A stretch of DNA of 64,000 nucleotides from Arenicellales bacterium (GCA_965116335.1 OZ220677.1:16834-80833); one strand, 5' to 3'; shown: positions 3,001 to 17,457, numbered from the stretch's first letter. Translations and numbers: made by a program. Notes: generated by a model from the letters alone, not told the origin.

Positions 3001-4065
3001 GACTATGCCAGAGACAACTGGATGGGCGGCGTGACTCTGATGCAAAGCAGTGGCAAAGGCGGTTATACCGATTCTGGTGTATCGTCCAGCTGCCCGCAAG
3101 AGGATAGCACGCCATGCGCTGGCGGCGCATCGGCGGGTGCGGGTACACTGGAGTCTTCATTGACCGCACTGATCCCTTATACCTCCATGCAAGTATCGGA
3201 TCGTATGCAATGGTGGGGTGCCCTGGGTCATGGTATTGGCGAGGTTGATCTGAAACCCGGAGCGGGCGATTCACTGACCTCTGATATTTCCTGGAATATG
3301 GCGGCTATTGGACTGCGCGGAGACCTGATTCAAGCGCAGGCAGGGCAGGGTCTTTCTTTAGCCCTGACTTCCGATGCACTATGGACCCGAACGGCATCAG
3401 AGCAGACACAAGAACTGGCGGCATCCGATTCAGACACTATGCGCTTGCGGTTGGGTCTGGAAGGCAGTTGGGCGTTTGAACTGAAAGATGGCGGTCAGTT
3501 GACGCCGAAGCTCGAGATGGGATTACGACAGGATGGTGGAGATGCGGAGACCGGTGGTGGCGTAGAGATTGGAGGAGGTATTTCCTGGTTGAATCCGGGA
3601 CTTGGACTTTCCCTTGATCTATCTGGACGGACGTTGGTTTCGCATGACGACGAAGGGTTGGAGGATCGGGGTTATGCGGCCTCACTGGAATTTGATCCGG
3701 ACCCATCCAGTGAGCGCAGTCCGTCCTTGACCTTGCGCCAGGATTGGGGGAATTCTTCCGGTGGTGGATTGGATGCGATGTTCACATCAAGCCCGCTCAC
3801 ACAATCAGGCGGAGGGAGTCAGGAGAGTCGCTGGACGGCGGAGGCGGCCTGGGGCTTCCCGGCATTGGGTGGACGCTTCACGGGGAGTCCTCATGCCGGT
3901 CTTGGTTTTTCTGGTGACAGTCGGGATTTCACGGTGGGTTGGCGTTTGAAGCCTGATTCCGAGGATGCGCCGAACCTTTCTCTGGGCGTACAGGCCACCC
4001 GGCGCGAGAATGGCGCAGACACCCCGCAGCACAGCGCCGGATTCGAAATGAGCATCCGATGGTAG
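1..4065 (+). CDS. Large Calx-beta repeat surface protein with C-terminal autotransporter-like beta-barrel (5' partial; frame open from base 1)
   Basis: Frame 1 reads AADPQLTIVAG... without a stop into the 109..4065 ORF. Repeated Calx-beta-like motifs (VTLTIQDDD, VRFDVIDDE, VTVNDND, AVGTIVDDD), then WLARFGRSVA leading into a Gly/aromatic-rich barrel-like region ending FEMSIRW. Confidence 0.8.
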   Translation, partial: AADPQLTIVAGETKSSGVVAIQALDNSEDDAIDNRPVRLSATASGGRGIADPAEVTLTIQDDDKAGVNFSENTIEVEKDETTVIQVRLTSQPTMDTTVTLTSSDPNVAELSASPRGRSVQLLFTPQNWNVPQSVTVHGIEDGDLSIETHIQSADPMYANAPPPPPLQTNVIGVPTLTLTASEDYIDEGAAATFTIAADRVSPIDVPVRIDVGYGCCIGVGEVLAEGQKGMRTVILPQGRTWVRFEVQTADDEVIHGEGIKRGNKSITAQIVESDAYQISHTGNDALARFMYYDSVMVSENDSVPPADIVVSVSGPERVMEGDTAQFTFTASKAPLNDLKISFFLDLFGDFNTNPVYTFDPNVMSGLEKDFVTLPAGALQTTYSLTIRDDDRTQGHGRMLVRVTGGSMKSVDGIIHRSYSIAGHLDREVRFDVIDDETSPSVESQASPQESPQQAEQAEQDEQEEDGQETARALAVAACVSDELIERGEDYYQANRNKASNYGSNWFSVLVAFDQRTPSDWTTDSRSIEPMTAASSRERESSWRGWRPFTKALECVETAIAEAEVEAEAEAQAEAGAQAEQQPEQQPEAEAQPAQVQDGQVEVQTEQTEVEVQAEVQPEPEQTPPPTPAIRLSAGSAVDEGESAEFILTADPAPLDDLVITYAVEQTGDYLADPGVGQRTITLAAEATTMVLSVDTVDDEMDEPDGSVSVTLATGAGYTLTTRQSRTVTVNDNDVMPPPVLSIRDATLHENQGGGYFTVTIEEPADWPVRFHYATRDSSPVSARADQDYQAHDRSARMQSQFEPGETEMKLYIEIYDDSHDENAETFEIELFDADVGSMPDVPVLIPDGIAVGTIVDDDQMPAAWLARFGRSVAQQALDGITDRIEAPRTAGTESTFAGISTQSSGLDQDLPGQSDVVQRFGVGNDTYGFGTDGMENGGEPQYRSMTMSDALMGVSFTTTSQKDASGGSVAFWGRTAQSSFNGNEDNLSLDGEITSALLGMDYARDNWMGGVTLMQSSGKGGYTDSGVSSSCPQEDSTPCAGGASAGAGTLESSLTALIPYTSMQVSDRMQWWGALGHGIGEVDLKPGAGDSLTSDISWNMAAIGLRGDLIQAQAGQGLSLALTSDALWTRTASEQTQELAASDSDTMRLRLGLEGSWAFELKDGGQLTPKLEMGLRQDGGDAETGGGVEIGGGISWLNPGLGLSLDLSGRTLVSHDDEGLEDRGYAASLEFDPDPSSERSPSLTLRQDWGNSSGGGLDAMFTSSPLTQSGGGSQESRWTAEAAWGFPALGGRFTGSPHAGLGFSGDSRDFTVGWRLKPDSEDAPNLSLGVQATRRENGADTPQHSAGFEMSIRW

Positions 4066-4221
4066 GGGGAGCGGGTGGGGGGAATGATGTTGGCGTGTGG
4101 ATCGGAATGATCTCGTAGGGGAGGGTCTCTGTGCCCTCCCGCGAATGATCGGACGGGTATCAACGGTAGCGGACACCCACAGAGGGGCGTGGGCAGGCTC
4201 TACGCATCGGTAATTGCGGGA
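4064..4221. repeat. REP-like (GTAG-type) palindromic repeat mosaic
   Basis: Modules ggggagcgggtggggggaatgatg, cgtaggggagggtctctgtgccctcccgc and gcggacacccacagagggg recur at many intergenic sites in the window. Confidence 0.8.
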
Positions 4222-4228
4222 AGTGGTC

Positions 4229-4257
4229 TTGCGGTGTGTGGCGTGGCGCGTTACAAT
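4229..4257 (+). promoter_or_regulatory. Putative sigma70 promoter of higBA, positioned for a leaderless transcript
   Basis: TTGCGG (4229-4234), 17 bp, TACAAT (4252-4257); ATG follows 5 nt later with no Shine-Dalgarno. Confidence 0.6.
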
Positions 4258-4262
4258 TCGGT

Positions 4263-4535
4263 ATGAAGATCAGGCACAAGGGATTGCGGGCACTGCACGA
4301 GAGGGATAATTCCGCGCGGGTGCCTGCCGATCTGGCGCCACGGCTCAAGCGCATCCTGTTCCGGCTGCAAGATGCAACGCATCCGCGAAGTGCAGACGCG
4401 CCGGGCTTCCGGCTGCACTCCCTGAAGGGCGACCGTGCGGGCTGGTGGAGCGTTCGCGTATCCGGCAACTGGCGCGTGGTATTCCGCTTTGAGGACGGAG
4501 AGGCCGTGGACGTGGACCTGATTGACTATCACTGA
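4263..4535 (+). CDS. higB: HigB (RelE/ParE superfamily) toxin
   Basis: MKIRHKGLRALHE...FRLHSLKGDRAGWWSVRVSGNWRVVFRFEDGEAVDVDLIDYH is the typical HigB signature; ATG at 4263. Confidence 0.92.
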   Translation: MKIRHKGLRALHERDNSARVPADLAPRLKRILFRLQDATHPRSADAPGFRLHSLKGDRAGWWSVRVSGNWRVVFRFEDGEAVDVDLIDYH

Positions 4536-4554
4536 CCGAAGGGGAGTGTTGACC

Positions 4555-4869
4555 ATGAACGACATCGCAAACGAGCGCGTCGGCCCGATGCGAAACCCGC
4601 CGCATCTGGGCGAACTGATCCGCGAGAGTATGGACGATGTGGGCTGGAGCGTGACCGAAACGGCGGCGCGTCTCGGCTGTGAGCGCGGTACGTTATCGCG
4701 CCTGTTGAACGGCAAGGCGGGCGTGTCGGCGACTATGGCGCTGGCGTTGGAGGACATCGGCTGGGGCACCGCCGAGCACTGGATGCGGATGCAGGCGAGC
4801 TACGAGCTCGCGCAGGCGCGGCACGACCGGACGGCTTCGAATCGGCGCATGCGGGCGCTACACGCATGA
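4555..4869 (+). CDS. higA: HigA HTH antitoxin
   Basis: NPPHLGELIRE...SVTETAARLG...LSRLLNGKAGVSATMALAL...WMRMQASYEL; directly downstream of higB. Confidence 0.92.
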   Translation: MNDIANERVGPMRNPPHLGELIRESMDDVGWSVTETAARLGCERGTLSRLLNGKAGVSATMALALEDIGWGTAEHWMRMQASYELAQARHDRTASNRRMRALHA

Positions 4870-4884
4870 TCAAGGCTCGCGCCG

Positions 4885-5143
4885 TTTCGACGGTTTCGGG
4901 AGGGTACAAGACCCTCCCCTACGATGACAGGTAACCGCAACCGTATTGTTATGGATTCCCGCATCTGCGGGAATGACGGGTGGTTGGGGCATGTTCCGGC
5001 GGTTGTGTCCCCCCATCCAATCCGCAAGCGGATTGGATTCCCCCTCAAGGGGGGAATGATTTGGACGGTTCACTCCAACCTTGAGGGGGAATCCGCGATA
5101 CAAGGGCGCAAGCCCGCCGGGGAGCGGGTGGGGGGAATGATGT
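4885..5143. repeat. REP/BIME-like mosaic
   Basis: gggagggtacaagaccctcccctacg, ggattcccgcatctgcgggaatgacg, atccaatccgcaagcgattggat and ccccctcaaggggggaatga modules. Confidence 0.85.
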
Positions 5144-5265
5144 GATGATGAGCGTGATTGTTCTGATAAAAGAAGCAGGGTATTATAGGGATATGAATAA
5201 TTCATTTGTTGTTGAAAACTACAGGCTTTTCTGCTTGAAATTTCGGCCAAATTATCCAAAGCCAG

Positions 5266-5577
5266 ATGCACACTGTAATCGCTGACAAGAAAGGGAAACT
5301 GGCAGAGATCTGCCAACGTTACGATGTTGTACGGCTTGAGGTTTTCGGATCAGCGGCACGCGGCACAGATTTCGACCTGGCCAAAAGTGACGCAGATTTT
5401 CTTGTTGAGTTTAACCCTCATAGCAATCTGTCACCTCTTGAACAGTTCTTCGGCCTTGTCGATGCGCTGAGCAACACATTGGAACGCCCCGTGGACCTGG
5501 TCGAAAATCACACATTTCGCAACCCGTATCTGAGTACATCCATCAACGAATCCCGCGAAGTTATTTATGCGTCGTGA
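5266..5577 (+). CDS. mntA: Minimal nucleotidyltransferase (MNT) antitoxin
   Basis: LEVFGSAARG...SDADFLVEF (GS-x-DxD Pol-beta NTase motif), RPVDLV; overlaps a DUF86 gene. Confidence 0.88.
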   Translation: MHTVIADKKGKLAEICQRYDVVRLEVFGSAARGTDFDLAKSDADFLVEFNPHSNLSPLEQFFGLVDALSNTLERPVDLVENHTFRNPYLSTSINESREVIYAS

Positions 5578-5923
5578 CGCTCGTGTCCTTCTGACCGATA
5601 TCAAGCAGGCAAGCGCCGACATTCAATCGTTCACCGACGGCATGGATAGCGCCGCCTACTCCGCTGATTCACTGACCCAAGCTGCGGTCGAACGCAAGTT
5701 CGAAATCATCGGCGAAGCGGTAAATCGTCTGCACATCAACCATCCCAACCTCGCCACAAGAATTCCCGAAATGCGTCGCATCATTGATTTTCGGAACTAT
5801 CTGGCTCATGGCTATGATCACGTAGCACCGAGACTCGTCTGGCTTTATGCTACCAGCAGCCTGTTGGAACTGAACGATGCGGTTCAGATGCTGCTTACCG
5901 AGATGGAAACACCTGACGAATGA
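5567..5923 (+). CDS. hepT: HEPN / DUF86 RNase toxin
   Basis: AVERKFEIIGEA...RRIIDFRNYLAHGYDHV (RxxxxH HEPN motif). Confidence 0.88.
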   Translation: MRRDARVLLTDIKQASADIQSFTDGMDSAAYSADSLTQAAVERKFEIIGEAVNRLHINHPNLATRIPEMRRIIDFRNYLAHGYDHVAPRLVWLYATSSLLELNDAVQMLLTEMETPDE

Positions 5924-6049
5924 ATGACAAGCGCACGAACTATATGGTCTCCTGATCGAAATAGTCTTCGTCAATCGCTCCCGCAAAATTACGCAGGTCA
6001 CCTGCACCTACAGTGTTGCCGTCAGCATACCTCTTCGCTTGGACATAGC

Positions 6050-6088
6050 GGTTGTGTCCCCCCATCCAATCCGCAAACGGATTGGATT
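6050..6088. repeat. Left part of a REP-like element interrupted by IS3
   Basis: gttgtgtccccccatccaatccgcaaacggattggatt normally continues ccccctcaaggggggaatga, which appears after the IS at 7339. Confidence 0.85.
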
Positions 6089-6148
6089 TGAACTGTACTG
6101 AGAAAGGTGGACACACTAGAATGGGGATAGAATCCTTGGAGGTGTCTG

Positions 6149-6445
6149 ATGCGGAAAAGAAATATTTACAGTAAAGAGTTCAAATTAGAAGCTCTTCGTC
6201 AATGGAAGCAGGAAGGTCAGTCTGCTACGGCTTTGGCGAAGAGTTTAGGTTTGCGTCCGAACATGCTATACAAATGGGAGGATCAGTTGAGTCGTCATGG
6301 TCGGCAGGCGTTTTTGGGTTCGGGTCGCCAGCCGGTAGTTTTGACGGATGAACTGTCTCGTCTCAAGCAGGAGTTGTCGGATGTCAAGATGGAGCGTGAT
6401 ATTCTAAAAAAGGCGGCGGCGTACTTTGCTCGAGAGCTGAAGTGA
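6149..6445 (+). CDS. IS3 transposase OrfA (HTH)
   Basis: YSKEFKLEAL...LYKW...ELSRLKQELSDVKMERDILKKAAAYFARE. Confidence 0.92.
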   Translation: MRKRNIYSKEFKLEALRQWKQEGQSATALAKSLGLRPNMLYKWEDQLSRHGRQAFLGSGRQPVVLTDELSRLKQELSDVKMERDILKKAAAYFARELK

Positions 6446-7305
6446 AGTACGCTTTTATTGAACGGTATCGTGGTTGTTTTCCGGTGGTTTGCATGTGTCG
6501 TGTGATTCGAGTGAGTCGTTCGGGTTATTATGCGTGGCGGAGTCGGGGTGCGAGCGCGGGGAGTTTATTTCGGCGCAATCTTTTAGTTGAGATTCGGCGG
6601 GTACATCAGCAGTTTCAGGGTCGTTATGGTGCGCTCAAGTGTTGGCGTCATTTGCGTCGGGAAGGGATTGCTTGCGGTCGGGATCAGGTCGTCAAGTTAC
6701 GGAGTTTGCACGGCATATTCAGTCAGCGCCGTCATCGTTTTGTGGTTACTACCCGCTCTAGGCCGAGTGATCGGGCGGCGGCGAATCAACTCAATCGTGT
6801 ATTTTATGCGAGTGCTCCGAATCGGGTCTGGGTGGGGGACGTGACGTTTATTGAAACCCGCCAGGGTTGGTTATATCTGGCCGTATTACTGGATCTCTAT
6901 TCGCGCAAGGTGGTGGGCTGGTCCATGGCCAATCGCAATGATACCTCTTTGGTCAAAGCCTGTTTGGACATGGCGGTTGCACATCGCCAACCTGCGCCTG
7001 GTCTCATTCATCATACAGACCGCGGAGCGACCTACACTTCTGAACTCTATCGTTATGCGCTGAACTGTAAGGGAATCATCGCATCCATGAGTCGAACAGG
7101 AGATTGTTGGGATAATGCAGTCGCGGAAAGCTTCTTTGGTCAACTGAAAAACGAATGGGCCTGGCAGCAGGGCCGTCCGAATCGGGAACAGGCCAGAGCG
7201 AGTCTGTTCGAATATATCGAATTGTTTTACAATCGACAAAGACTCCACCAGACTTTGGGTTATATCTCACCCGTGGAGTATGAAAGCAATCAATGTGTTT
7301 CTTAA
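6442..7305 (+). CDS. IS3 transposase OrfB (DDE integrase core)
   Basis: WVGDVTFI, LIHHTDRG, CWDNAVAESFF, YIELFYNRQRLHQTLGYISP; in the -1 frame relative to OrfA. Confidence 0.93.
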   Translation: MKYAFIERYRGCFPVVCMCRVIRVSRSGYYAWRSRGASAGSLFRRNLLVEIRRVHQQFQGRYGALKCWRHLRREGIACGRDQVVKLRSLHGIFSQRRHRFVVTTRSRPSDRAAANQLNRVFYASAPNRVWVGDVTFIETRQGWLYLAVLLDLYSRKVVGWSMANRNDTSLVKACLDMAVAHRQPAPGLIHHTDRGATYTSELYRYALNCKGIIASMSRTGDCWDNAVAESFFGQLKNEWAWQQGRPNREQARASLFEYIELFYNRQRLHQTLGYISPVEYESNQCVS

Positions 7306-7335: not shown

Positions 7336-7845
7336 ATTCCCCCTCAAGGGGGGAATGATTTGGACGGTATCACTCCACCCTTGAGGGGGAGTCCGCGATA
7401 CAAGGGCGAAGCCCGCCGGGGAGCGGGTGGGGGGAATGATGTTGATACTTGGATCGAAATGATGTTGTAGGGGAGGGTCTCTGTGCCCTCCCGCAGATGT
7501 CGGGACAGGTATCAACGATAGCGGGCACCCACAGAGGGGCGCCCCTACGATGACAGTAAGCGCAGTATCTGAATGGTTGTGGATTCCCCCTCAAGGGGGG
7601 AATGATTTGGACGGTATCACTCCACCCTTGAGGGGGAGTCCGCGATACAAGGGCGAAGCCCGCCGGGGAGCGGGTGGGGGGAGTGATGTTGATACTTGGA
7701 GCGAAATGATCTCGTAGGGGAGGGTCTCTGTGCCCTCCCGCAGATGTCGGGACAGGCAACGGTAGCGGGCACCCACAAGGGGCACCCCTACGATGACTTT
7801 AATTGCAGATTCCGTATTATTGTGGATTTCCGCATTTGCGGGAAA
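7336..7845. repeat. Tandem REP/BIME mosaic, two ~247-bp direct units
   Basis: Unit starting attccccctcaaggggggaatgatttggacggtatcactccacc at 7336 and again at 7583; the same block also occurs at ~5038-5142. Confidence 0.88.
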
Positions 7846-7971
7846 AATATGCGGGAAAAATGTTTGTTTTTTGCTGTTTTTGGGGTAAGATTCGGGCTTG
7901 TTATTGAGACCCGGTGTCGGAAATCTGAAATAAAATGAGAGCGCAGGAGAGAAAAGTGGCAGAAAATATGA

Positions 7972-8009
7972 AAAAACCCTTGACAAGGGTTTTTGCGTTT
8001 TCTGACAAT
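7972..8009 (+). promoter_or_regulatory. Putative promoter of the collagen operon with palindromic operator over the -35
   Basis: Perfect 11-bp inverted repeat AAAAACCCTTG-A-CAAGGGTTTTT (7972-7994) containing TTGACA (7980-7985); weak -10-like GACAAT at 8004-8009 (18-bp spacer). Confidence 0.55.
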
Positions 8010-8012
8010 ATT

Positions 8013-8066
<54 letters not shown>

Positions 8067-8367
8067 GCCGTTGTGTGCCATGACATTTGGCGGGTCTTTT
8101 TGGCGGCGGGGTCGGGCCGCTCATCCTGCGCTTCGATTTGACCGTTTAAGCTCCGATTTATCCTCTTTATTCCGCCTCTGCCGAGTCGTCGGTGGCGGGT
8201 GGTTTCCCGGCTTGCTGAAAGCCGGATTATCTGTAAGGGAAACTCTCTGCAACTGGCGGCAACGCAGAGTCTCTTTATCCTCCCACTTCTATCCTGATCC
8301 GTGCAACGATTCCACTCTCCGGCGCGGAGGTGGGGGCGTTGTGCGGGTTTCGATGCGGTAGTCCAAT

Positions 8368-9714
8368 ATGAAGAAATCGAGAAAAAGCTCAAGGCAGGCG
8401 GCGCAGGTCCGCCGTGATCTGCCGGAATTGCCGGTGAAACGGCGAAACTGGTATGGCCCGGTATCGGTCGGAGCCACTTCGTTGATGCTGGCAGGCGCCG
8501 CGGGGATGGCATCGGTCGCAGGGTTCTACTCGACTGAGGTACAGGCGCAGGAAATGCCGGGCCCACCGGGTCCACAGGGGCCGCCGGGACCAACGGGACC
8601 GCAGGGAGAACCCGGTCCAGCCGGGCCGCCGGGAGCAGATCAAGAACAGGGGGCTACGGGCCCACAGGGGCCGCCGGGAATGGACGGTCCGCCGGGCCCG
8701 CCGGGCCCGCCGGGAATAGACGGCTCACCGGGAGCACGCGGCCCGGCAGGTCAACCGGGCCCGGTTGGTCCGGCTGGCAATCCAGGGCCACCTGGAGACC
8801 CGGGACCATCGGGACCTACCGGCCCGCAGGGCGACCCAGGTAATACGGGGGCCACCGGTCCAGTCGGGGCGCGGGGAGATACTGGTCCAACTGGAGACCC
8901 GGGGCCATCAGGCCCTCCCGGCTCGCAGGGGCCGCCTGGATCGGATGGTGATCCGGGACCGATGGGACCGCCGGGAAGCTCTAGTGCAGGCCCTCCCGGC
9001 CCACCGGGACCGCGGGGATTAAAGGGTGATACAGGCCCATCGGGAACAGGTGGCCCTCCCGGCTCGCAGGGGAGTCTGGGTCCTCCCGGCCCTCCCGGCC
9101 CGACGGGTCCACCGGGAGACACTAACATGGGACCATCGGGCCCTCCCGGCCCGCAGGGGCCGCCTGGATCGGATGGTGATACCGGTCCGCCGGGACCGGC
9201 AGGTACTGCCGGAGCGGGCAGTAGCCAGCCGGGACCACCCGGCCCATCCGGGCCGCCGGGACCGCCGGGAGACAGCAGTACATCCAGCGTTCCCGGTCCG
9301 CCGGGCCCACCGGGACCGCCCGGCCCGCCGGGGCCACCCGGCGCTCCGGAGGGCTGGGTTGTGAATCAGGAGAGGCGTATTGATACGATCGTGCAGGGGG
9401 TCAACGAGCACGGTCAGCGCATCCGCTCGCTACAGTTGTCGTTCGATACGTTGCGAGACGAGTCGAATGAGGGCACGGCCATTGCCATTGCGCTCGGTGG
9501 GATACAGATCCCCTATAACAAGGAGAGCGCTTTCTCGTTGCGGCTGGGTCATTATCGATCCGGCAACGCGGTTGCGGCTGCCGGCGCTTTCCGTCTGCCG
9601 CCCGGCGCCCTGCGTCTGCCGGAGGATGCCAGCGCCGTGGTGGATGTCGGGGTGGCACATGGCTTCGAGTATTCACAGACTGGCGCGACCGCAGGTATTA
9701 CCTGGGGCTGGTAG
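8368..9714 (+). CDS. Collagen-like trimeric autotransporter adhesin 1 (Gly-X-Y passenger, coiled-coil, YadA-type anchor)
   Basis: Extended leader ending VQA-Q; ~82 Gly-X-Y triplets (8560-9348, hand count); heptad stalk ([25 protein letters not shown]); anchor-like [10 protein letters not shown]...[19 protein letters not shown]...[10 protein letters not shown]. Confidence 0.88.
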
Positions 9715-9734
9715 GACAGGACAGGAAAGCGGTC

Positions 9735-11105
9735 ATGCACAAGAAACCAGACAAGCTCGCCCAAAGCGGCGCGCCGGGTAGTGAGGACGCGCCGAATCTG
9801 CTGGCGAGGAGACGCAACTGGTATGGGCCGGTATCGGTCGGGGCTACTTCGCTGATGCTGGCAGGCGCCGCGGGGATGGCATCGGTCGGGGGGTTCTATT
9901 CGACCGACGTACAGGCGCAGGCGGGGCCACCGGGGCTGACGGGACCGCCGGGACCACCGGGGTCAGCAGGTCCGCCGGGAGAGCCGGGGCCGGATGGGCC
10001 AGCAGGAATGCGCTTTGGAGATTCAGCACCGGGTAATCCGGGACCGCCCGGCCCAGATAGCACAGTAGCCGGTCCGCCGGGTCCGCCGGGGCTGCCGGGA
10101 CCGTCAGGCCCATCAGGTCCCGTAGGATACGACGGAGCACCGGGGATGCGGGGGCCAGCCGGAGCAGCCGGACCAGCCAGTACGACAGCAGGGCCGCCGG
10201 GATCAAAGGGATCAAAGGGACCACAGGGTGATCATGGGGCGCGAGGGGGGGCGGGGTCAACCGGTTCCAAGGGTAATCCGGGACCGCCAGGACCGCCGGG
10301 TGACCCGGGTGCTCCCGGAACGGATGGGGCAACAGGGCCGCAGGGAGCATCAGGCCCACCCGGATCGGGTGGCAGCAACCCAGGGCCGCCGGGTATGACA
10401 GGGCAGAAGGGTGCAACGGGTGACCGGGGATTTACCGGCCCGCCGGGGCCATCGGGGCCATCGGGAATCCAGGGACCGCCGGGGTTACAGGGTTCAGCCG
10501 GTCCACCCGGACCGGGTGGTAGTAACCCAGGCCCGCCGGGGCCGCCGGGGCCAGCAGGTCAATCCGGGATTCAGGGCCCGCCGGGGTTACAGGGCCCACC
10601 GGGCACGGCTGGCATTGGAGCGGGACCGGCAGGACCACCCGGCCCGGCGGGGCCAAAGGGCACCCCCGGAGAGGTCACTGTTCAACCGGGTCCGTCGGGC
10701 CCTCCCGGCCCGCCGGGACCACCGGGGGCGTTGCGTCTGCCGGAGGGTTGGCTTACGCATCAGGAAAAACGCGTGGATGAGGCGTTCAGTGAGGTCACTC
10801 GACACGGTCAGCAAATCCGCTCGCTGGAGTTATCGTTCAATGAGTTACGCGCCGAATCGCGGGAGGAAACCGCTATCTCCATTGCGCTGGGTGGTCTGCG
10901 TATCCCTTATGACAAGGATCGAGCCTTTGGGGTGCGATTGGGTCATTATGAGTCCAGTAATGCCGTTGCGGCTGCCGGAGCTTTCCGTTTGTCCAAAGCT
11001 TTTCTGCTGCCGGAGAAATTCCGCGCCGAAGTGAATATCGGTAGCGCCTATGGGTTCGATTATTCGCAGGCTCGTGTGAGCGCCGGTATTACCTGGAGAT
11101 GGTAG
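9735..11105 (+). CDS. Collagen-like trimeric autotransporter adhesin 2 (paralog)
   Basis: Leader nearly identical to paralog 1 ([35 protein letters not shown]); Gly-X-Y region 9924-10730; stalk; anchor [10 protein letters not shown]...[18 protein letters not shown]...SAGITWRW. Confidence 0.88.
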
Positions 11106-11713
11106 AGGCGGTATTGCCACTTCAGCGGCAGCAAAGCGCACAGACCTCCGGGTCGTGTCCTGAAGCGCTGTGGCGAAACAGCCCGATGCTGCCGTTGGTC
11201 AGTGAGGGTGAATTCCTGTCGCCCGCGCAGTGCGCTATCCTGTCGGAGTTTCTGGAGGCGAATGTACGGCGTCTGGGGCGGGAGAATGTGGAACCGTTCT
11301 TTTCCTGGCGGCAGATCAATTACGCCCAGGTCGATAACTCCCGTGTACGGAAAATCATGGACGACGTGCGCTGTCGCATCGCCATGATCCTGTCGGATGG
11401 ATTGCACGGCAGTACCGTGTACCCGGAATATACCGATCTGGTGCTATGGCGGGAAGGCCAGAATATGAATGTCCATCGGGACGACCTGCCGCCACATTTC
11501 GAGCATCGGCTGTATTCCAGCATCCTGTACTTGACCTCGTGTCACGGCGGCGCCACTGTTTTCCCGACTGTCGGCATTGAAGTGCCTCCACAAGCGGGGC
11601 GGATGATTGCTTATCCATCTGGCCTGCCGCACGGTGTGCGTCCGGTGGTGGCGGGCAAGCGACACACGCTGGCCTCTTGGTATACCGGGTTGATAGATAA
11701 ACGGGAAGCGTAA
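11099..11713 (+). CDS. 2OG-Fe(II) dioxygenase, prolyl-hydroxylase-like (start may be ATG 11186)
   Basis: HxD (VHRD), YSSILYL...GGATVFP...[12 protein letters not shown], distal His (PHGVRPV), 2OG-binding R (KRHTLASWY); no signal peptide; ATG overlaps the upstream stop region. Confidence 0.85.
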
Positions 11714-12303
11714 TGCGTAGTGAATGGGCTTATTATGACTCGCTGATTAGCGCGGAGGAATGTCAGGCGATCATCGACGACGCATTGCAGCGGGAGGTTG
11801 CGCTTGGCACGGTCGGGCTGGATGGCACTGAAATCAATCCGGGCATCCGTCACGGCGAGGTCATCTTCCTGCCGAGACGCGACCCGGCGTTCGTGCATGT
11901 TTTTCAGTTGATTGATTACTGCGTGGATGAGGCGAATGATGAATGGTTCGGAGTGGACTATAACCGACAGGGCGCGCGCAGCCTGCAATTCAGCATCTAT
12001 CGGGGGGAGGATAGTGAAGACGGGGGGCATTATTACCATGCCCATCAGGACACGGTGCTGGTCAGTGGCGACCGTCCAACCCAGCGTAAGCTGAGCGTCA
12101 CCGTGCAGCTGTCGGACCCGGATGACTACGAGGGGGGCGATTTCAAGATGCATTATGTGTCTGCCCAGCCGCCCGCCGATGCCCTGCGCCGACGTGGCAC
12201 GGTACTGGTTTTCCCGTCTCTGGTGATGCACGAGGTGTCGCGTGTGACTCGTGGCACTCGCTATTCCCTGGTCGGCTGGTATCCGGGGCCGGGATGGCGA
12301 TAG
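11713..12303 (+). CDS. 2OG-Fe(II) dioxygenase, P4Hc/PKHD-type
   Basis: YHAHQD (HxD), RKLSVTVQLSDPDDYEGGDF, GTVLVFPSLVMHEVSRVTRGTRYSLVGW; TAATG stop-start coupling with the upstream gene. Confidence 0.88.
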   Translation: MRSEWAYYDSLISAEECQAIIDDALQREVALGTVGLDGTEINPGIRHGEVIFLPRRDPAFVHVFQLIDYCVDEANDEWFGVDYNRQGARSLQFSIYRGEDSEDGGHYYHAHQDTVLVSGDRPTQRKLSVTVQLSDPDDYEGGDFKMHYVSAQPPADALRRRGTVLVFPSLVMHEVSRVTRGTRYSLVGWYPGPGWR

Positions 12304-12326
12304 AATTTGAGAGGCTTGAACCGGCC

Positions 12327-12788
12327 ATGATTCGCACAAACAAGCCGGTTCGTTCGCCGGATAACTGGAATGTGGTTCTGCATGATCGTTATATCAAGGA
12401 TCTGTCGTTCGAGAATCCGGGCGCCCCGGTTGTGCCGCACAAGGACGAGCTGCATCTCAATGTGTCGGTGCGGGTAGACAGTCGGCATCATAGCGCCGAG
12501 GCGGGCAATGAGTTTCATGAGGTGACGTTGACGGTTGAGGTGACCGGCCACCATCATTCGCGGACTGTGTTTCTGGTCGAGCTGATGTATGCGGGTTTGT
12601 TTGAACTCACCGGGCTTGAGGAGGAGCCGCGTCAACGTTTCCTGTTGTGTGAGGCTCCCCGTATGCTGTTTCCCTGGGTCAATCGCATATTTGCAGACCT
12701 GACACGGGATGGCGGCTTGCCCACGCTGAATCTGTCGCCACCGGATTTCGTGACTCGTTATGAGGAGGTGGTGGAGGGGGAGAAATAG
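12327..12788 (+). CDS. secB: SecB protein-export chaperone (alternative start 12294)
   Basis: YIKDLSFENPGAP...EVTLTV...VFLVELMYAGLF...LLCEAPRMLFPW...LTRDGGLPTLNLSPPDF matches the SecB signature. Confidence 0.88.
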   Translation: MIRTNKPVRSPDNWNVVLHDRYIKDLSFENPGAPVVPHKDELHLNVSVRVDSRHHSAEAGNEFHEVTLTVEVTGHHHSRTVFLVELMYAGLFELTGLEEEPRQRFLLCEAPRMLFPWVNRIFADLTRDGGLPTLNLSPPDFVTRYEEVVEGEK

Positions 12789-13259
12789 CTAGTTGGCTAT
12801 CTGTTTGCTGCGCCGGGAGGAGATAATCCGGGTGTCCACTCCCATGAAATTCAGCCCGCCGAAGATGCGGCCATGCTCGATCTTGAGACATTTGTCCTCG
12901 ACAAATCCGATATTGGCCTGCTCGGCAATCCTGCACGCTTGAGCGCTGGTCACGCTTAACTGAAGCCAGAGTACCTGTGCGCCGATTGCGACTGCCTGCC
13001 TGGCGTAGTCGGGCGCGGTTTGCGACCGCTGAAACAGGTCTACGATGTCAACAGAATGTGGGATTGAGGCCAGGTCGGGGTAGCATTTCTGTCCGAGCAC
13101 CTGATCATAATTGGGGTTGACCGGAATTACCTCAAAACCATGATCCAACAGGTATTTGGCGACGAAGTAGCTGGGGCGATGCCACTTCGCGGACAGGCCG
13201 ACGATCGCTATTGTGTGGCTGTCCGTCAGGATCCGGCGCAGGGTATTGGTATCCGTCAT
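12789..13259 (-). CDS. CoA-binding protein (YccU-like)
   Basis: TIAIVGLSAKWHRPSYFVAKYL...VIPVNP...VDIVDLFQRS...VLWLQL...DKCLKIEH. Confidence 0.9.
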   Translation of the reverse strand: MTDTNTLRRILTDSHTIAIVGLSAKWHRPSYFVAKYLLDHGFEVIPVNPNYDQVLGQKCYPDLASIPHSVDIVDLFQRSQTAPDYARQAVAIGAQVLWLQLSVTSAQACRIAEQANIGFVEDKCLKIEHGRIFGGLNFMGVDTRIISSRRSKQIAN

Positions 13260-13362
13260 CTCTTTAGTTTTGTGATAAATTCACCTGCGTTGAATGTAAA
13301 CCAGAACGGGTTTTGAATCCAGTGCAGCGCCATGTTGACAGAATGATGAGTGTAAGATTTCG

Positions 13363-14985
13363 ATGAAAGACGATAATCCTTATTTGCAGGGGCTCGACAA
13401 ATGTGCCGCTAACTATCGTGCCTTGACTCCGTTGAGTTTTCTGAGGCGGGTGGCATCGGTTTACCCGGATCGTATTGCGGTGATCGACGGGTCATCCAGA
13501 ACCTCCTGGCGGGAGACCGATAGCCGTTGCAGAAAACTGGCATCGGCGCTGGTCAGGCAGGGAGTGGGTAAAAACTGCACGGTGGCGATTCTGGCGCCTA
13601 ATTCGCAGGCCTGTCTGGAGGCGCATTTCGCGGTGCCGATGGCCGGAGCGGTATTGAACGCGATTAATACCCGGCTCGATGCTGCCACTATCGCATTCAT
13701 TCTGGAGCACGGGCAGGCGGATGTGTTGCTGGTCGATGCCGAGTATTCCGGGTTGGCGAAACAGGCTCTGGCGCGCGTCAATCGTAAGGTGTTTGTGGTG
13801 GAAATCGAGGTGCCGGGCATGGCCTGTTCGCTGGATGCGGTTACCTGTTCTGATTTCATGCAACGCGGAGACGCTGATTTCCCCGGTTACTGGCCGGACG
13901 ATGAGTGGGATGCGATCTCGCTGAATTATACTTCCGGCACTACCGGCAACCCCAAGGGGGTGGTCTATCATCATCGCGGCGCTTATCTGAATGCGCTCAG
14001 CAATGCGATTGGCTGGGAGATGCCGCACTTCCCGGTTTATCTGTGGACCTTGCCGATGTTCCATTGCAATGGCTGGTGTTTTCCGTGGACTCTGGCGGCA
14101 CTGGCCGGGAGCAGTGTCTGTCTGCGGCAGGTCAATGCCAAAGCTGTTTTTGACGCGATTGCCGATTATCGGGTCACGCATTTCTGCGGAGCGCCGATCA
14201 TCATGGGTATGTTGGTCAATGCGGCGGATGATGAGCGGCGGGAGTTTGATCAGCCGGTCAACATGATGACGGCTGCTGCGCCGCCACCGGCCTCGGTGCT
14301 GGAGGCGATGGATGCCCAGGGGTTCAGAGTCACTCATGTGTATGGGTTGACGGAAACTTATGGTCCGGCGGTGATCTGTGCCCGGCAACCGCAATGGGAT
14401 GCGCTCGACTCCCAGGCCCGCGCCGACAAGATGGCCCGCCAGGGCGTGGCCTATCATGTGCTGGACGGCCTCGATGTGAAGCATCCGCAAAGCATGACTC
14501 CGGTCGCCAGGGATGGGTCGGAATTGGGGGAAACCCTGTTTCAGGGCAACATTGTAATGAAGGGTTATCTGTCCAACCCGGAAGCTACCCGGCAGGCTTT
14601 CGAGGGTGGATGGTTTCATTCCGGCGACCTCGGCGTGATGCATTCGGATCACTATATTGAGCTGAAAGATCGGTCAAAGGACATCATTATTTCTGGCGGG
14701 GAGAACATTTCCTCAATCGAGATCGAGAATTGCCTGTACGCTCATCCTGATATTATCGAGGCCGCGGTGGTCGCGAAGGCGCACCCGAAGTGGGGGGAAA
14801 GCCCCTGCGCTTTTGTCGGTCTGGCGCCGGGCAGGACGCTTACGGTACAGCAGGTGATTGACTTCTGTTACCAGAACCTGGCGCATTACAAGGTGCCACG
14901 TCATGTTGTTTTTTGTGAATTGCCGAAAACATCGACCGGCAAAATCCAGAAATTCAAGCTGCGGCAACGGGCGCACGATATATAA
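13363..14985 (+). CDS. Acyl-CoA synthetase / AMP-binding enzyme
   Basis: YTSGTTGNPKG, YGLTETYGP, WFHSGDLG, DRSKDIIISGGENISSIEIE, PKTSTGKIQK. Confidence 0.92.
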   Translation: MKDDNPYLQGLDKCAANYRALTPLSFLRRVASVYPDRIAVIDGSSRTSWRETDSRCRKLASALVRQGVGKNCTVAILAPNSQACLEAHFAVPMAGAVLNAINTRLDAATIAFILEHGQADVLLVDAEYSGLAKQALARVNRKVFVVEIEVPGMACSLDAVTCSDFMQRGDADFPGYWPDDEWDAISLNYTSGTTGNPKGVVYHHRGAYLNALSNAIGWEMPHFPVYLWTLPMFHCNGWCFPWTLAALAGSSVCLRQVNAKAVFDAIADYRVTHFCGAPIIMGMLVNAADDERREFDQPVNMMTAAAPPPASVLEAMDAQGFRVTHVYGLTETYGPAVICARQPQWDALDSQARADKMARQGVAYHVLDGLDVKHPQSMTPVARDGSELGETLFQGNIVMKGYLSNPEATRQAFEGGWFHSGDLGVMHSDHYIELKDRSKDIIISGGENISSIEIENCLYAHPDIIEAAVVAKAHPKWGESPCAFVGLAPGRTLTVQQVIDFCYQNLAHYKVPRHVVFCELPKTSTGKIQKFKLRQRAHDI

Positions 14986-15010
14986 CGCGATATATAACGC
15001 GATATATAAC
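14976..15010. repeat. 12-bp tandem repeat x3 spanning the acyl-CoA synthetase stop codon
   Basis: cgatatataacg cgatatataacg cgatatataac. Confidence 0.9.
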
Positions 15011-15036
15011 TGGATAATCTCAAGCCAGGCTGCGGT

Positions 15037-16341
15037 TCAGGTCTTCAGGGCAATCACCAGATCCATCACATTGGTGCCGGTTGGGCCGCACTGAAAGAGT
15101 GCCCCACGCTGTTTCAGGAATGTGCCGGAGTCTGCATTATCCAACGCCGCTTGCGCGTCCGGTGACCAGGTCTCACCGTCTACAATCGCGCCTGCATACG
15201 GAGTCGGCCCGTCCGTACCATCGGTTCCGGCTACAATCACCGCGACCTTATCCATACCCCGCATGACTCTGGCCAGTAGCAGGGCCAGATGCTGGTTCCT
15301 GCCGCCGCATCCGGGATGCGCCGGTAACTGGATGGTCGGTTCTCCTCCCCAGATACAGATGCCCGGCTGGTCTGGCCTGGTCAGCTGATCGGACATCATT
15401 TTCGCGATCTGGTCGATTGCCTGAGCTGGCTGATTTTGATTCAGGTGCTGATTGACGAGCACCCGGTAACCCTGACGCGCCGCCTGCTCTGCGACTGCGT
15501 TGCGAGCCATGCTGTTGGAGGCGATTATTCGTCCCTGATACTCAAAACCCCGGGTAGTGGGTGGTTGCCGTATTGGCCCGGCCTGGTCGAATATCGGGCG
15601 GATGGATGGCGGTATAGTCAGTGCCTGTTCGGGCATCGGCTGGTCGCTGCCAATACCTGAGCCGATGACGCGGATATCGTCATTCGGCACATCGGAAATG
15701 GCGTAAGCGAGCACACGCCTGCCGTGGAAGTTCTGTAGCAGTTTGCCGCCCTTGATACGCGACAATCGGCAGCGCAATGGATTGATCTGATCAATGCCAT
15801 AGCCGTCGGCAATCAGCTTTTCGGTCAGCCGTTGCAGTTCATCGAGTGTCGTGTTTGCCGGGAGCAATTCAACCAGAGCGGATGCGCCGCCGGAAACCAG
15901 CATGACCAGAGAGTCCGTCTGTGGTATGGATTCAATAAAGGTGAGCAGTTGTTGACCTGCAAACAGACTGTTTTGATCGGGCACGGGATGGGCGGATTCA
16001 ATGATCTGTATGTTTCCCGGTAATCGATCCGGCTCATGAATATGGTTGTATTTGGTGATCAGCAAGCCGCGTGATTGTGCGGATAAAAACCCGTCGGCGC
16101 CCTGACACATTGCCGCCGCTGCCTTGCCCACTGCCACCAGATGATGAATATCGCCGATGCCTGCCTCGCGCAGGGTAGCCCGGACCACGTGTTCTCCATT
16201 GACCGCAGCGATGCCTGTGCGCCATAAGGATTCGACCCTGTTCTTGATACCCGCTCCGATTTCGGGAGGGCACGCAGACCCTGTCTCCCGGTGATGGGCT
16301 GAGGCATGAGACGCCGGTTGTCGATTGTGATTCTTTTTCAT
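15037..16341 (-). CDS. Glycerate kinase, class II (DUF4147 + MOFRL)
   Basis: VAVGKAAAAM, AHPVPDQNS, LVSGGASAL, SRIKGGKL, ISDVPNDD, GGEPT, GGRNQHLAL, AGTDGTDGPT, GPTGTNVMD. Confidence 0.9.
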   Translation of the reverse strand: MKKNHNRQPASHASAHHRETGSACPPEIGAGIKNRVESLWRTGIAAVNGEHVVRATLREAGIGDIHHLVAVGKAAAAMCQGADGFLSAQSRGLLITKYNHIHEPDRLPGNIQIIESAHPVPDQNSLFAGQQLLTFIESIPQTDSLVMLVSGGASALVELLPANTTLDELQRLTEKLIADGYGIDQINPLRCRLSRIKGGKLLQNFHGRRVLAYAISDVPNDDIRVIGSGIGSDQPMPEQALTIPPSIRPIFDQAGPIRQPPTTRGFEYQGRIIASNSMARNAVAEQAARQGYRVLVNQHLNQNQPAQAIDQIAKMMSDQLTRPDQPGICIWGGEPTIQLPAHPGCGGRNQHLALLLARVMRGMDKVAVIVAGTDGTDGPTPYAGAIVDGETWSPDAQAALDNADSGTFLKQRGALFQCGPTGTNVMDLVIALKT

Positions 16342-16398
16342 CTCAAATTAGTAACCAAAATCAAGTATACTGTTTGTTGAACCCGGACACACAACTTT

Positions 16399-17457
16399 AT
16401 GAATCGAATCCTTAACTGGTTTAAGCGACAGCTTTCTAATCCCCAGGTCGTATTCCTCACTCTGGTGGTCATCGGGCTGTTACTGGTCATATCTTATGCG
16501 GGCAGCATTCTGGCTCCGGTGATTGCCGCTGTGGTCATCGCCTATCTGCTGGAAGGTCTGATCGGTAGAATGACGCGATTGAAAATACCACGATTCCTGG
16601 CACTGTGGGTGGTGTTCTCCAGCTTCATGATATTCCTGGCCGGTATTACCTTTGGCTTGTTGCCGGTTCTGTACAAGCAGCTGACGGAAGTGGTTCAACA
16701 AATCCCCAGTATGTTGACTCAGGGGCAGGCGGCATTGATGGCTTTGCCGGAACATTACCCGGAACTGCTTTCAACCGGGCAGGTCAGGGAGTTGATCTTC
16801 GGCTTGCGGACTCAGTTGACCGATGCGGGTCAGGCTTTGATCACCGGCTCTATTTCTGCCACCGCCAGCATCATCACGGTAATGATTTATATCGTGTTGC
16901 TGCCTATTCTGGTTTTCTTTTTTCTCAAGGACAAGCAGCTCATCCTGCGCTGGGTTGCCGAGTTGATGCCCGGTGATCATGGGCTGGCGAGTCAGGTATG
17001 GCGGGATGTGGATATGCAAATCGGCAATTATATCCGTGGCAAATTCTGGGAGATTCTGGTGGTCTGGTCGGTAACACTGACGGCGTTCGTCTATCTCGAT
17101 CTGCAATACGCGATGCTGCTCTCGGTTGTGGTCGGGCTTTCCGTCCTGATCCCTTATATCGGTGCTATCGTGGTGACTATTCCGGTGGCATTGATTGCAT
17201 GGTTTCAGTGGGGCTGGTCTAACGAGTTTATCACTCTGGTGGTGGTGTATCTGGTGATTCAGGCACTGGACGGCAATCTTCTGGTGCCCATTCTGTTCTC
17301 CGAAGTGGTCAATATCCACCCGATTGCCATTATTGTCGCGGTCTTGTTCTTTGGCGGGTTATGGGGGTTGTGGGGGATCTTTTTCGCGATTCCTCTGGCT
17401 ACACTGGTACGCGCTATTATTCTGGCATGGCCGAAACCGGATGAGGAACCTGTCTGA
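16399..17457 (+). CDS. AI-2E family (PerM-like) transporter
   Basis: Multi-TM; PILVFFFLKD, IGNYIRGK, LIPYIGA, IQALDGNLLVPILFSEVVNIHP. Confidence 0.9.
   Translation: MNRILNWFKRQLSNPQVVFLTLVVIGLLLVISYAGSILAPVIAAVVIAYLLEGLIGRMTRLKIPRFLALWVVFSSFMIFLAGITFGLLPVLYKQLTEVVQQIPSMLTQGQAALMALPEHYPELLSTGQVRELIFGLRTQLTDAGQALITGSISATASIITVMIYIVLLPILVFFFLKDKQLILRWVAELMPGDHGLASQVWRDVDMQIGNYIRGKFWEILVVWSVTLTAFVYLDLQYAMLLSVVVGLSVLIPYIGAIVVTIPVALIAWFQWGWSNEFITLVVVYLVIQALDGNLLVPILFSEVVNIHPIAIIVAVLFFGGLWGLWGIFFAIPLATLVRAIILAWPKPDEEPV

Follow-up and report, generated by a model that had tools for sequence, protein, structure and literature searches.

Two single-domain oxygenases of different subtypes, resembling prolyl 3- and prolyl 4-hydroxylases, in a collagen operon of an Arenicellales bacterium

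A 64,000-nt stretch of DNA from an Arenicellales bacterium (GCA_965116335.1 OZ220677.1:16834-80833), the whole of which is called the window here, carries an operon encoding two collagen-like proteins, two small Fe(II)/2-oxoglutarate (2OG) oxygenases, named Enz1 and Enz2, and a SecB-family chaperone. Sequence comparisons fully support the assignment of Enz1 and Enz2 to different oxygenase subtypes, the former like prolyl 3-hydroxylases (P3H) and the latter like prolyl 4-hydroxylases (P4H) and PKHD-type proteins, and both are catalytically intact as judged from their conserved active sites. They are probably two non-redundant cytoplasmic protein prolyl hydroxylases, dedicated to the collagen-like trimeric-autotransporter proteins of the same operon. 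The genes lie in the order collagen-1, collagen-2, Enz1, Enz2 and SecB:

8368..9714, plus strand: collagen-like protein 1, 448 aa, presumed substrate (Pfam Collagen, 2.3e-35)
9735..11105, plus strand: collagen-like protein 2, 456 aa, presumed substrate (Pfam Collagen, 9.5e-30)
11099..11713, plus strand: Enz1, single-domain Fe(II)/2OG oxygenase, P3H-like, 204 aa (Pfam PF13640, PDB searches, AF2 model)
11713..12303, plus strand: Enz2, single-domain Fe(II)/2OG oxygenase, PKHD/PHD/P4H-like, 196 aa (Pfam PF13640, PDB searches, AF2 model)
12294..12788, plus strand: SecB-family export chaperone (Pfam SecB, 9.5e-33)

Enz1 matches the Pfam family PF13640 (2OG-FeII_Oxy_3) with 45.6 bits against a gathering score of 27, and its translation contains the motifs VYPEYTDLV...VHRD...YSSILYL. 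Its active site comprises the iron triad H126, D128 and H178 and the 2OG-binding R188 (204-aa numbering), together with W194. The HxD...H triad and the Arg ten residues after the distal His (His+10) are invariant in an alignment of 24 family members. In a single-sequence search of the PDB the best match is human P3H1 (8k0e, E=5e-7), the alignment covering YSAILYL...PQCGR...PHGVKAV..GQR..IALWFT. Family profiles of both enzymes were also searched against all PDB chains. The Enz1 profile matched P3H1 at 1.5e-10, followed by the Bacillus anthracis P4H (8e-5), Sbal_3634 (7e-4), PBCV-1 vCPH (0.015) and the alpha-2 subunit of collagen P4H (C-P4H) at 0.13; P3H1 is favoured over any P4H by five orders of magnitude. 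Mutation of H587, D589, H659, R669 or W675 lowers the activity of P3H1, and W675 is an osteogenesis-imperfecta site (PMC11381544). Equivalents of all of these residues are retained by Enz1 in the profile alignment. Meanwhile, the AF2 model of Enz1 (pLDDT 91.4) retrieved by Foldseek the PDB structures of PBCV-1 vCPH, the Pseudomonas putida and B. anthracis P4Hs, human P3H1, the Chlamydomonas P4H and human C-P4H-II. Among these matches human P3H1 has the highest identity (24%, TM 0.73-0.74), and the few small-molecule oxygenases rank low.

Most Enz1 orthologues have 176 aa and start at a Met equivalent to position 11186, and the core counted from the ATG at 11186 has 175 aa. In the closest relatives, the N-terminal extension stays open and is conserved in part. 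The ATG at 11099 may therefore add a 29-residue extension, and a start at either 11099 or 11186 is compatible with the alignments.

Enz2 matches PF13640 with 56.2 bits (gathering score 27), and its motifs read HAHQD...RKLSVTVQLSDPDDYEGGDF...FPSLVMHEVSRVTRGTRYSLVGW in translation. The iron triad H111, D113 and H173 and the 2OG-binding R183 make up its active site; the triad and the Arg at His+10 are invariant in an alignment of 41 sequences. The single-sequence PDB search gave the PKHD-type protein PiuC as the best match (E=1.3e-6), and then Sbal_3634. In the profile search the order was Sbal_3634 (1.8e-13), PiuC (2e-11), vCPH (2e-9), the Chlamydomonas P4H (9e-7), the B. anthracis P4H (6e-6), PHD2 (2e-5) and P3H1 (3e-3). 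Against the NCBIfam models of PKHD proteins, Enz2 stays far under the cut-offs (NF003974, 59.2 bits vs 143; YbiX model, 24 vs 399). Foldseek with the AF2 model (pLDDT 92.4) placed the P. putida PPHD-EF-Tu complex on top (TM 0.75), followed by PiuC, Dictyostelium and human PHDs (PHD2) and Sbal_3634; OGFOD1 stands at rank 45 in the same list. No signal peptide was seen in the translation of Enz1 or of Enz2, both read by eye without a predictor.

The two enzymes are distant from each other in sequence. BLASTP aligned a stretch of only 31 residues between them, and a profile-profile comparison gave 19% identity with a probability of 97.5% and E=5.5e-12. Both models adopt a fold of the double-stranded beta-helix type with TM 0.7-0.75 to vCPH, P4Hs, P3H1, PPHD and PHD2. 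The top Foldseek matches of both in the PDB are nearly all protein prolyl hydroxylases. Pfam showed PF13640-type oxygenase domains only in Enz1 and Enz2, with no P4Ha_N domain, and neither profile matched a lysyl-hydroxylase (LH) chain at E<=1 among all PDB chains. The residue at His+10 is Arg in Enz1, Enz2, P3H1 and the PHD/PKHD enzymes and Lys in the B. anthracis P4H; C-P4H alpha likewise carries Lys. The enzymes were placed in subtypes by profile E-values against all PDB chains. An earlier note on this DNA had read the two genes as dioxygenases of different subtypes, the first resembling the catalytic domain of animal P3Hs and the second of a P4Hc/PKHD-like type. The motifs that it quoted are all found in the open reading frames (ORFs) 11099-11713 and 11713-12303, and the searches bear out its reading of each enzyme and of the difference between them. 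Clustering with small-molecule or nucleic-acid oxygenases, which would have spoken against that reading, was looked for in the Foldseek lists and was not seen.

Both collagen-like proteins begin with a long N-terminal region that resembles a signal peptide, followed by a Gly-X-Y region of 240-250 residues, a coiled coil, and a C-terminal beta domain of ~70 residues with a terminal W. The profile of this anchor family found its best PDB match in the YadA anchor 2lme (E=5.5e-4), spanning the coiled coil and the strands. The Pfam model YadA_anchor matched seven of nine family members, all under the gathering score (best 2.3e-4), and a Pfam scan of the full-length collagen proteins detected no anchor domain at E<=0.1, the family profile being needed for its recognition. 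The C-terminus is likely a divergent trimeric-autotransporter anchor that lies below curated thresholds. In collagen 1, Pro occupies X in 61% and Y in 45% of the triplets, and 34% are GPP; the corresponding values for collagen 2 are 49%, 37% and 28%. Bacterial collagens generally have ~19% Pro at X and Thr-rich Y positions, and most of them are not hydroxylated and obtain stability otherwise (PMC8968730). By composition, the window collagens are unusually animal-like in Pro content.

The repeats offer sites for both animal activities. The product of collagen P3H is trans-3-hydroxyproline (3-Hyp) at the X-position Pro of Pro-4Hyp-Gly, and that of collagen-type P4H is trans-4-hydroxyproline (4-Hyp) at the Y-position Pro of X-Pro-Gly. 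Both site types, Y-Pro and X-Pro followed by Y-Pro, are plentiful in the window collagens, and the GPP triplets (28-34% of all triplets) are potential sites of 3-hydroxylation. Lys in the triplets of both proteins is found exclusively at Y, the position on which animal LH acts: collagen 2 has five Lys at Y and none at X, and collagen 1 has one Lys among 82 triplets. The GLK, GSK, GQK and GPK triplets to which the earlier note had pointed are present in these proteins.

Collagen 2, Enz1, Enz2 and SecB are linked as an operon because their start and stop codons overlap. At 11099, the Enz1 ATG overlaps with the collagen 2 stop (ATGGTAG), the Enz2 start overlaps the stop codon of Enz1 (TAATG), and the SecB ATG falls within the final codons of Enz2. 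The gene after SecB is convergent. The operon holds no genes besides the collagens, Enz1, Enz2 and SecB, and a CRTAP or PPIB partner is absent from it. SecB scores under the cut-off of every NCBIfam secB model (NF004392, 122.8 bits vs 143; TIGR00809, 94.6 vs 102.8).

The enzyme pair recurs with collagen in cellular relatives. A scan of the genome collection for Enz1 with strict patterns gave two loci, and a metagenome scan gave nine more. In 5.8 billion proteins, Enz1 has ~35 close relatives, and Enz2 has a matching set of ~35 orthologues and, at 35-45% identity, many further relatives. The genome matches are sponge-associated metagenome-assembled genomes, one of which is assigned to Candidatus Poriferihabitaceae (Arenicellales). 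In all 15 cellular loci with enough upstream DNA, one or two genes for Pro-rich collagen-like proteins that share the anchor precede the pair, the proteins ranging from 203 aa to >2500 and >4300 aa. L014 (2.3 kb) is too short to inform. Across 17 loci, Enz1 and Enz2 diverge from the window copies in step (r=0.99 between their identities), and therefore the two are inherited as a pair. SecB comes next after the pair in most related loci, and the two clusters of one 7.58-Mb genome each include a SecB copy. In L008, an ankyrin-repeat protein (7489-8346), a typical "eukaryotic-like" gene of sponge symbionts, is encoded directly 5' of a short collagen-anchor gene and the Enz1/Enz2/SecB cassette. 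In addition, the gene calls of public assemblies are wrong for giant collagen genes, either in frame (L004 1-7932, an Arg-rich nonsense product, the true collagen ORF lying in another frame) or in strand (L006 2069-4774). Protein databases are therefore likely to contain too few of these proteins, or to hold them in garbled form.

An extended form of the cassette was found in 11 loci (L006, L007, L019-L027), in which two extra genes lie between the collagen genes and the pair (L006 4846-6908; L007 7795-10013; L019 1062-3094). The first encodes an oxygenase of 208-256 aa with LH3 (2e-11) and mimivirus L230 (5e-10) as best PDB matches. The second encodes a fusion of a COLGALT1-like GT25 domain (1.2e-21) and an LH3-type glucosyltransferase domain (1.2e-42). 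Neither the LH homologue nor the glycosyltransferase (GT) fusion is present in the 64-kb window. Lys at Y is commoner where the extended cassette occurs, with nine of 53 triplets in one L007 collagen vs one of 82 in window collagen 1. Because the LH homologue and the GT fusion join these 11 loci, the cassette is a collagen-modification module in which Lys hydroxylation has an enzyme of its own. By homology, the extended set together with Enz1 and Enz2 would amount to a near-complete animal-type set of collagen-modifying enzymes.

These loci bear on the possibility that either Enz1 or Enz2 acts on the collagen-like protein at a residue that is not Pro (Lys, Asp/Asn or another). It includes the proposal of the earlier note that the pair provides Pro plus Lys hydroxylation. 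The confinement of Lys in the window collagens to Y (5 vs 0), the position of animal LH, the lack of an LH homologue in the window, and the fact that substrates of PKHD-type enzymes are not known would all suit it. However, the LH homologue of the 11 loci is additional to both enzymes, neither of the enzyme profiles reaches an LH chain, and collagen 1 shares the operon with both enzymes yet has a single Lys in its triplets. Enz1 or Enz2 as an LH was rejected on account of the separate homologue, the Pro-plus-Lys proposal is disfavoured, and we consider a non-Pro target for either enzyme very unlikely.

Relatives of the pair are also carried by phages. Three phage-like contigs from one sponge metagenome (L003, L005 and L013) encode the Enz1/Enz2 pair at ~50% identity. 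In L013 (circular, 66,990 bp; region 8001-16522), the two genes overlap and lie 2.6 kb from the gene of a 3648-aa protein in which two collagen segments are rich in GPP. L003 and L005 have tail-fibre-like genes, and each encodes a >2600-aa protein that extends past the edge of the locus. They also encode homologues of the anti-defence proteins Acb2/Tad1 and Tad2. Elsewhere, an Enz2-like gene occurs without an Enz1 orthologue, either directly 3' of a GPP-rich collagen/anchor gene (L017, L018) or, in the T4-like phage locus L015, near the gene of a 1941-aa collagen-repeat protein. In the cultured Synechococcus phage S-CAM9 (L028, NC_031922.1 25859-42413), the tail fibre gp222 (1830 aa, 1540-7032) contains a collagen segment of ~175 residues with GPK/GQK/GPT repeats. 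It is followed by one small ORF and then by two overlapping oxygenase genes, gp220 (7393-8004) and gp219 (8001-8558). The product of gp219 is clearly Enz2-like (2.3e-59 against the Enz2 family profile), whereas gp220 is not classifiable (B. anthracis P4H at 0.18 and a 35-residue match to an LH-like protein). S-CAM9 offers a culturable system for examining a putative hydroxylation of collagen by phage "2OG-Fe(II) oxygenase" genes.

More distant homologues, with 26-34% identity, occur in 46 phage records for Enz1 and in 280 for Enz2. Some cyanophage relatives of Enz1 have been automatically named "procollagen-proline 3-dioxygenase" or "leprecan-like", and the role of phage P4H-like genes "remains cryptic" (PMC9301287). 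Longer distant relatives of Enz1 (P0266, P0269, P0187, P0206, P0221, P0171, P0201) are fused to other domains, namely a Skp1-type Hyp GlcNAc-transferase (PF11397), DUF6065, a methyltransferase plus GT2, or a nucleotidyltransferase. Such fusions hint at further systems that combine hydroxylation with glycosylation.

For the proposal that Enz1 and Enz2 are dedicated to the collagens of their operon, we infer what the enzymes act on, that they do so in the cytoplasm, and what SecB contributes, as follows. The collagen pre-proteins would be synthesised in the cytoplasm, and Pro residues of the Gly-X-Y repeats would be hydroxylated there on unfolded single chains; animal P4H, P3H and LH are known to act on chains only while these are non-helical. 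The SecB of the cassette would hold the chains export-competent, unfolded and untrimerised, in keeping with the passage of autotransporters through the inner membrane unfolded via Sec. After export, the YadA-like anchor would trimerise in the outer membrane, the neck would nucleate the triple helix, and the passenger on the surface would zip into a triple helix stabilised by hydroxyproline. Enz2 would be the core enzyme, probably forming 4-Hyp at Y-position Pro. Two observations favour this role: relatives of Enz2 stand next to collagen-like genes without a partner in other lineages, and Enz2 has the greater likeness to viral and algal P4Hs. Enz1 would add a second, P3H1-like activity, by analogy the formation of 3-Hyp at the X-position Pro of GPP. 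A split between 3-Hyp and 4-Hyp, for which the earlier note had suggested 4-Hyp first and 3-Hyp second, is plausible.

Several observations weigh against this proposal. The likeness of Enz1 to P3H1 is ~24% identity, lies mainly in the C-terminal half, and comes without any of the accessory domains or partners of P3H1. PiuC and Sbal_3634, the closest sequence relatives of Enz2, have no known substrate, and PPHD, its best structural match, hydroxylates EF-Tu and not collagen. Both families have many distant relatives of unknown function in marine phages, and collagen repeats were not seen in L003 and L005 within the 16-20 kb available. Some of these points are what would be expected if the enzymes were general "auxiliary gene" oxygenases of marine phages that act on another protein (EF-Tu, ribosomal), a nucleic acid or a small molecule, with an incidental linkage to collagen: the cyanophage relatives without an assigned role run to hundreds, the PPHD-EF-Tu complex tops the structural list of Enz2, and two of the three phage-like contigs have the pair without collagen in the visible DNA. 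PHROG families matching Enz1 are even labelled "DNA endonuclease" and "DNA endonuclease V". We judged these labels to be transferred names, as the profiles align over the whole oxygenase domain; the profile behind them is that of a double-stranded beta-helix oxygenase, with no match to a nuclease family. This alternative is weakened most because linkage to Pro-rich collagen recurs in three unrelated genomic settings, namely autotransporter operons, a giant phage protein and a cyanophage tail fibre. The overlap of the enzyme genes with their neighbours and the LH and collagen GT homologues that join the cassette also count against it, and we regard an unrelated substrate as highly improbable.

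A last point of the same kind concerns regiochemistry, which is not conserved within prolyl-hydroxylase subfamilies, so that the roles of Enz1 and Enz2 could be reversed or both could be 4-hydroxylases. OGFOD1, a structural neighbour of the PHD/PKHD group, is a prolyl 3-hydroxylase, and comparison with 4-hydroxylases indicates that single residues do not set the regiochemistry (PMC4396695). Because this 3-hydroxylase resembles PHD2-type 4-hydroxylases, the regiochemistry of Enz1 and Enz2 is not readable from their families. A reading of C3 or C4 chemistry from family membership was rejected for the same reason, OGFOD1 grouping structurally with the 4-hydroxylating PHDs. The assignment of C3/C4 and X/Y to the two enzymes, made by analogy, is the weakest step of the proposal, and we advance it tentatively, with rather less than even confidence. 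Alternatively, both enzymes might 4-hydroxylate the collagen-like proteins, differing in X/Y position or context or acting as a heteromeric pair, and no 3-Hyp would be formed. The B. anthracis P4H, which acts on collagen peptides in vitro, hydroxylates C4 of prolines at X as well as at Y in (PPG)n (PMC8968730). Many 4-hydroxylases are, moreover, among the top structural matches of both models, and subfamily does not fix regiochemistry. However, such a division of labour sits poorly with the preference of the Enz1 profile for P3H1, and the co-inheritance of two enzymes so different in sequence points to different chemistry or different targets, though a split by position would account for it too. 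On this evidence, a pair of 4-hydroxylases seems unlikely.

Compared with known systems, Enz1 shares with the catalytic domain of P3H1/leprecan (8k0e) the pattern YS.ILYL...GG..F...V.P..GR......PHGV..V..G.R...A.W.T, the Fe ligands, the Arg at His+10 and the Trp equivalent to W675, and its presumed substrate is rich in GPP. However, P3H1 has an N-terminal TPR-like domain, signal and retention motifs of the endoplasmic reticulum (ER), and CRTAP/PPIB partners, all of which are missing from Enz1. In contrast to the ER-resident P3H1, Enz1 is a single domain of 175-204 aa and predicted to be cytoplasmic. The small stand-alone PF13640 enzymes vCPH (5c5t), Chlamydomonas P4H (2jig) and B. anthracis P4H (3itq) act on Pro-rich or collagen-like peptides. 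These monomeric P4Hs are among the top structural matches of Enz1 and rank behind PKHD-type proteins in the profile search with Enz2, and the B. anthracis enzyme differs from both in having Lys at His+10. We know of no monomeric viral, algal or bacterial P4H reported in an operon of two hydroxylases with substrate and SecB. The animal C-P4H has a peptide-substrate-binding domain and a PDI beta subunit, neither of which is found in Enz1 or Enz2. PKHD-type (PiuC, YbiX, Sbal_3634) and PHD-type (PPHD, PHD2) proteins have the Arg at His+10 as Enz2 does, but are longer (225-243 vs 196 aa), and their genomic partners are iron-uptake genes or EF-Tu, whereas those of Enz2 are collagen-like genes. As far as sequence and domain content can tell, the two enzymes belong to a known superfamily but lack the defining accessory features of the animal P3H, C-P4H and PKHD equivalogs.

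Mimivirus is another non-animal system that combines collagen-like proteins with animal-type modifying enzymes, as the extended bacterial cassette does. The LH and GT genes of the latter match L230 (5e-10), a lysyl hydroxylase/glycosyltransferase, and R699 (6.7e-30), a glucosyltransferase, of mimivirus; the bacterial setting differs in its operon, Sec export and autotransporter anchor. To our knowledge, a pair of prolyl hydroxylases of two subtypes has not been described in mimivirus, and P3H-type modification of collagen has not previously been described in bacteria. The cyanophage "2OG-Fe(II) oxygenase" genes are distant homologues of both enzymes, an Enz2-like one in S-CAM9 lying just downstream of a collagen-bearing tail fibre gene, but they lie at a distance from the clade of the symbionts and are not generally paired with an Enz1 orthologue. 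From gene neighbourhoods, Iyer et al. (2010) proposed that bacterial dioxygenases hydroxylate co-encoded collagen-like proteins (PMC2938197). The operons in that study contain Asp/Asn beta-hydroxylase and PhyH families with sulfotransferases, and are without P3H- or P4H-like PF13640 enzymes, LH, collagen GTs and SecB (PMC2938197). In Burkholderia, trimeric autotransporters with collagen-like sequence are known from in silico work (PMC10224339). In the searchable literature we found no description of an operon of collagen, P3H-like enzyme, P4H/PKHD-like enzyme and SecB, or of the extended LH/GT cassette.

Two further features lie upstream of the operon:

7980..8009, plus strand: candidate sigma-70-like promoter, TTGACA-18-GACAAT (consensus scan only, 10/12 matches, weak evidence)
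8014..8066, plus strand: (GCCA)13 tetranucleotide repeat (Tandem Repeats Finder, 13.2 copies, 100% matches)

The candidate promoter overlaps a terminator-like hairpin at 7972-7994, and the repeat sits between it and the start of collagen-1 (8368). Tetranucleotide-type repeats 5' of adhesin genes are classic phase-variation switches, and by analogy the (GCCA)13 repeat could serve as such a switch for the collagen operon. About 1 kb 5' of the operon, an IS3-family transposase is encoded at 6442-7305 (rve integrase core, 4.3e-28), which is consistent with a mobile cassette. In addition, a 1318-aa ORF at 109-4065, whose sole Pfam match is a Calx-beta domain, may encode another large surface protein.

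Taken more broadly, it is possible, rather than probable, that Gammaproteobacteria living as sponge symbionts and their phages carry a portable, minimal, animal-like kit for collagen maturation. Such a kit would consist of the P3H-like and P4H-like enzymes, often with LH and a Gal/Glc transferase fusion, and SecB, and would give hydroxylated (and glycosylated) collagen on the surface of cells or virions; by extension, the cyanophage "2OG-Fe(II) oxygenase" genes would hydroxylate the collagen segments of tail fibres. If this is true, bacteria and phages share the logic by which animals mature their collagen, and a testable function would be at hand for a very abundant class of marine phage genes that has long been treated as metabolic auxiliary genes. 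Small, soluble and partner-free enzymes would be available for the hydroxylation of recombinant collagen in E. coli, a known bottleneck. It would also bear on the origin of the animal enzymes, the hosts being sponges, the earliest collagen-building animals, and the modified collagens may serve sponge symbionts in mimicry of the host matrix or in adhesion.

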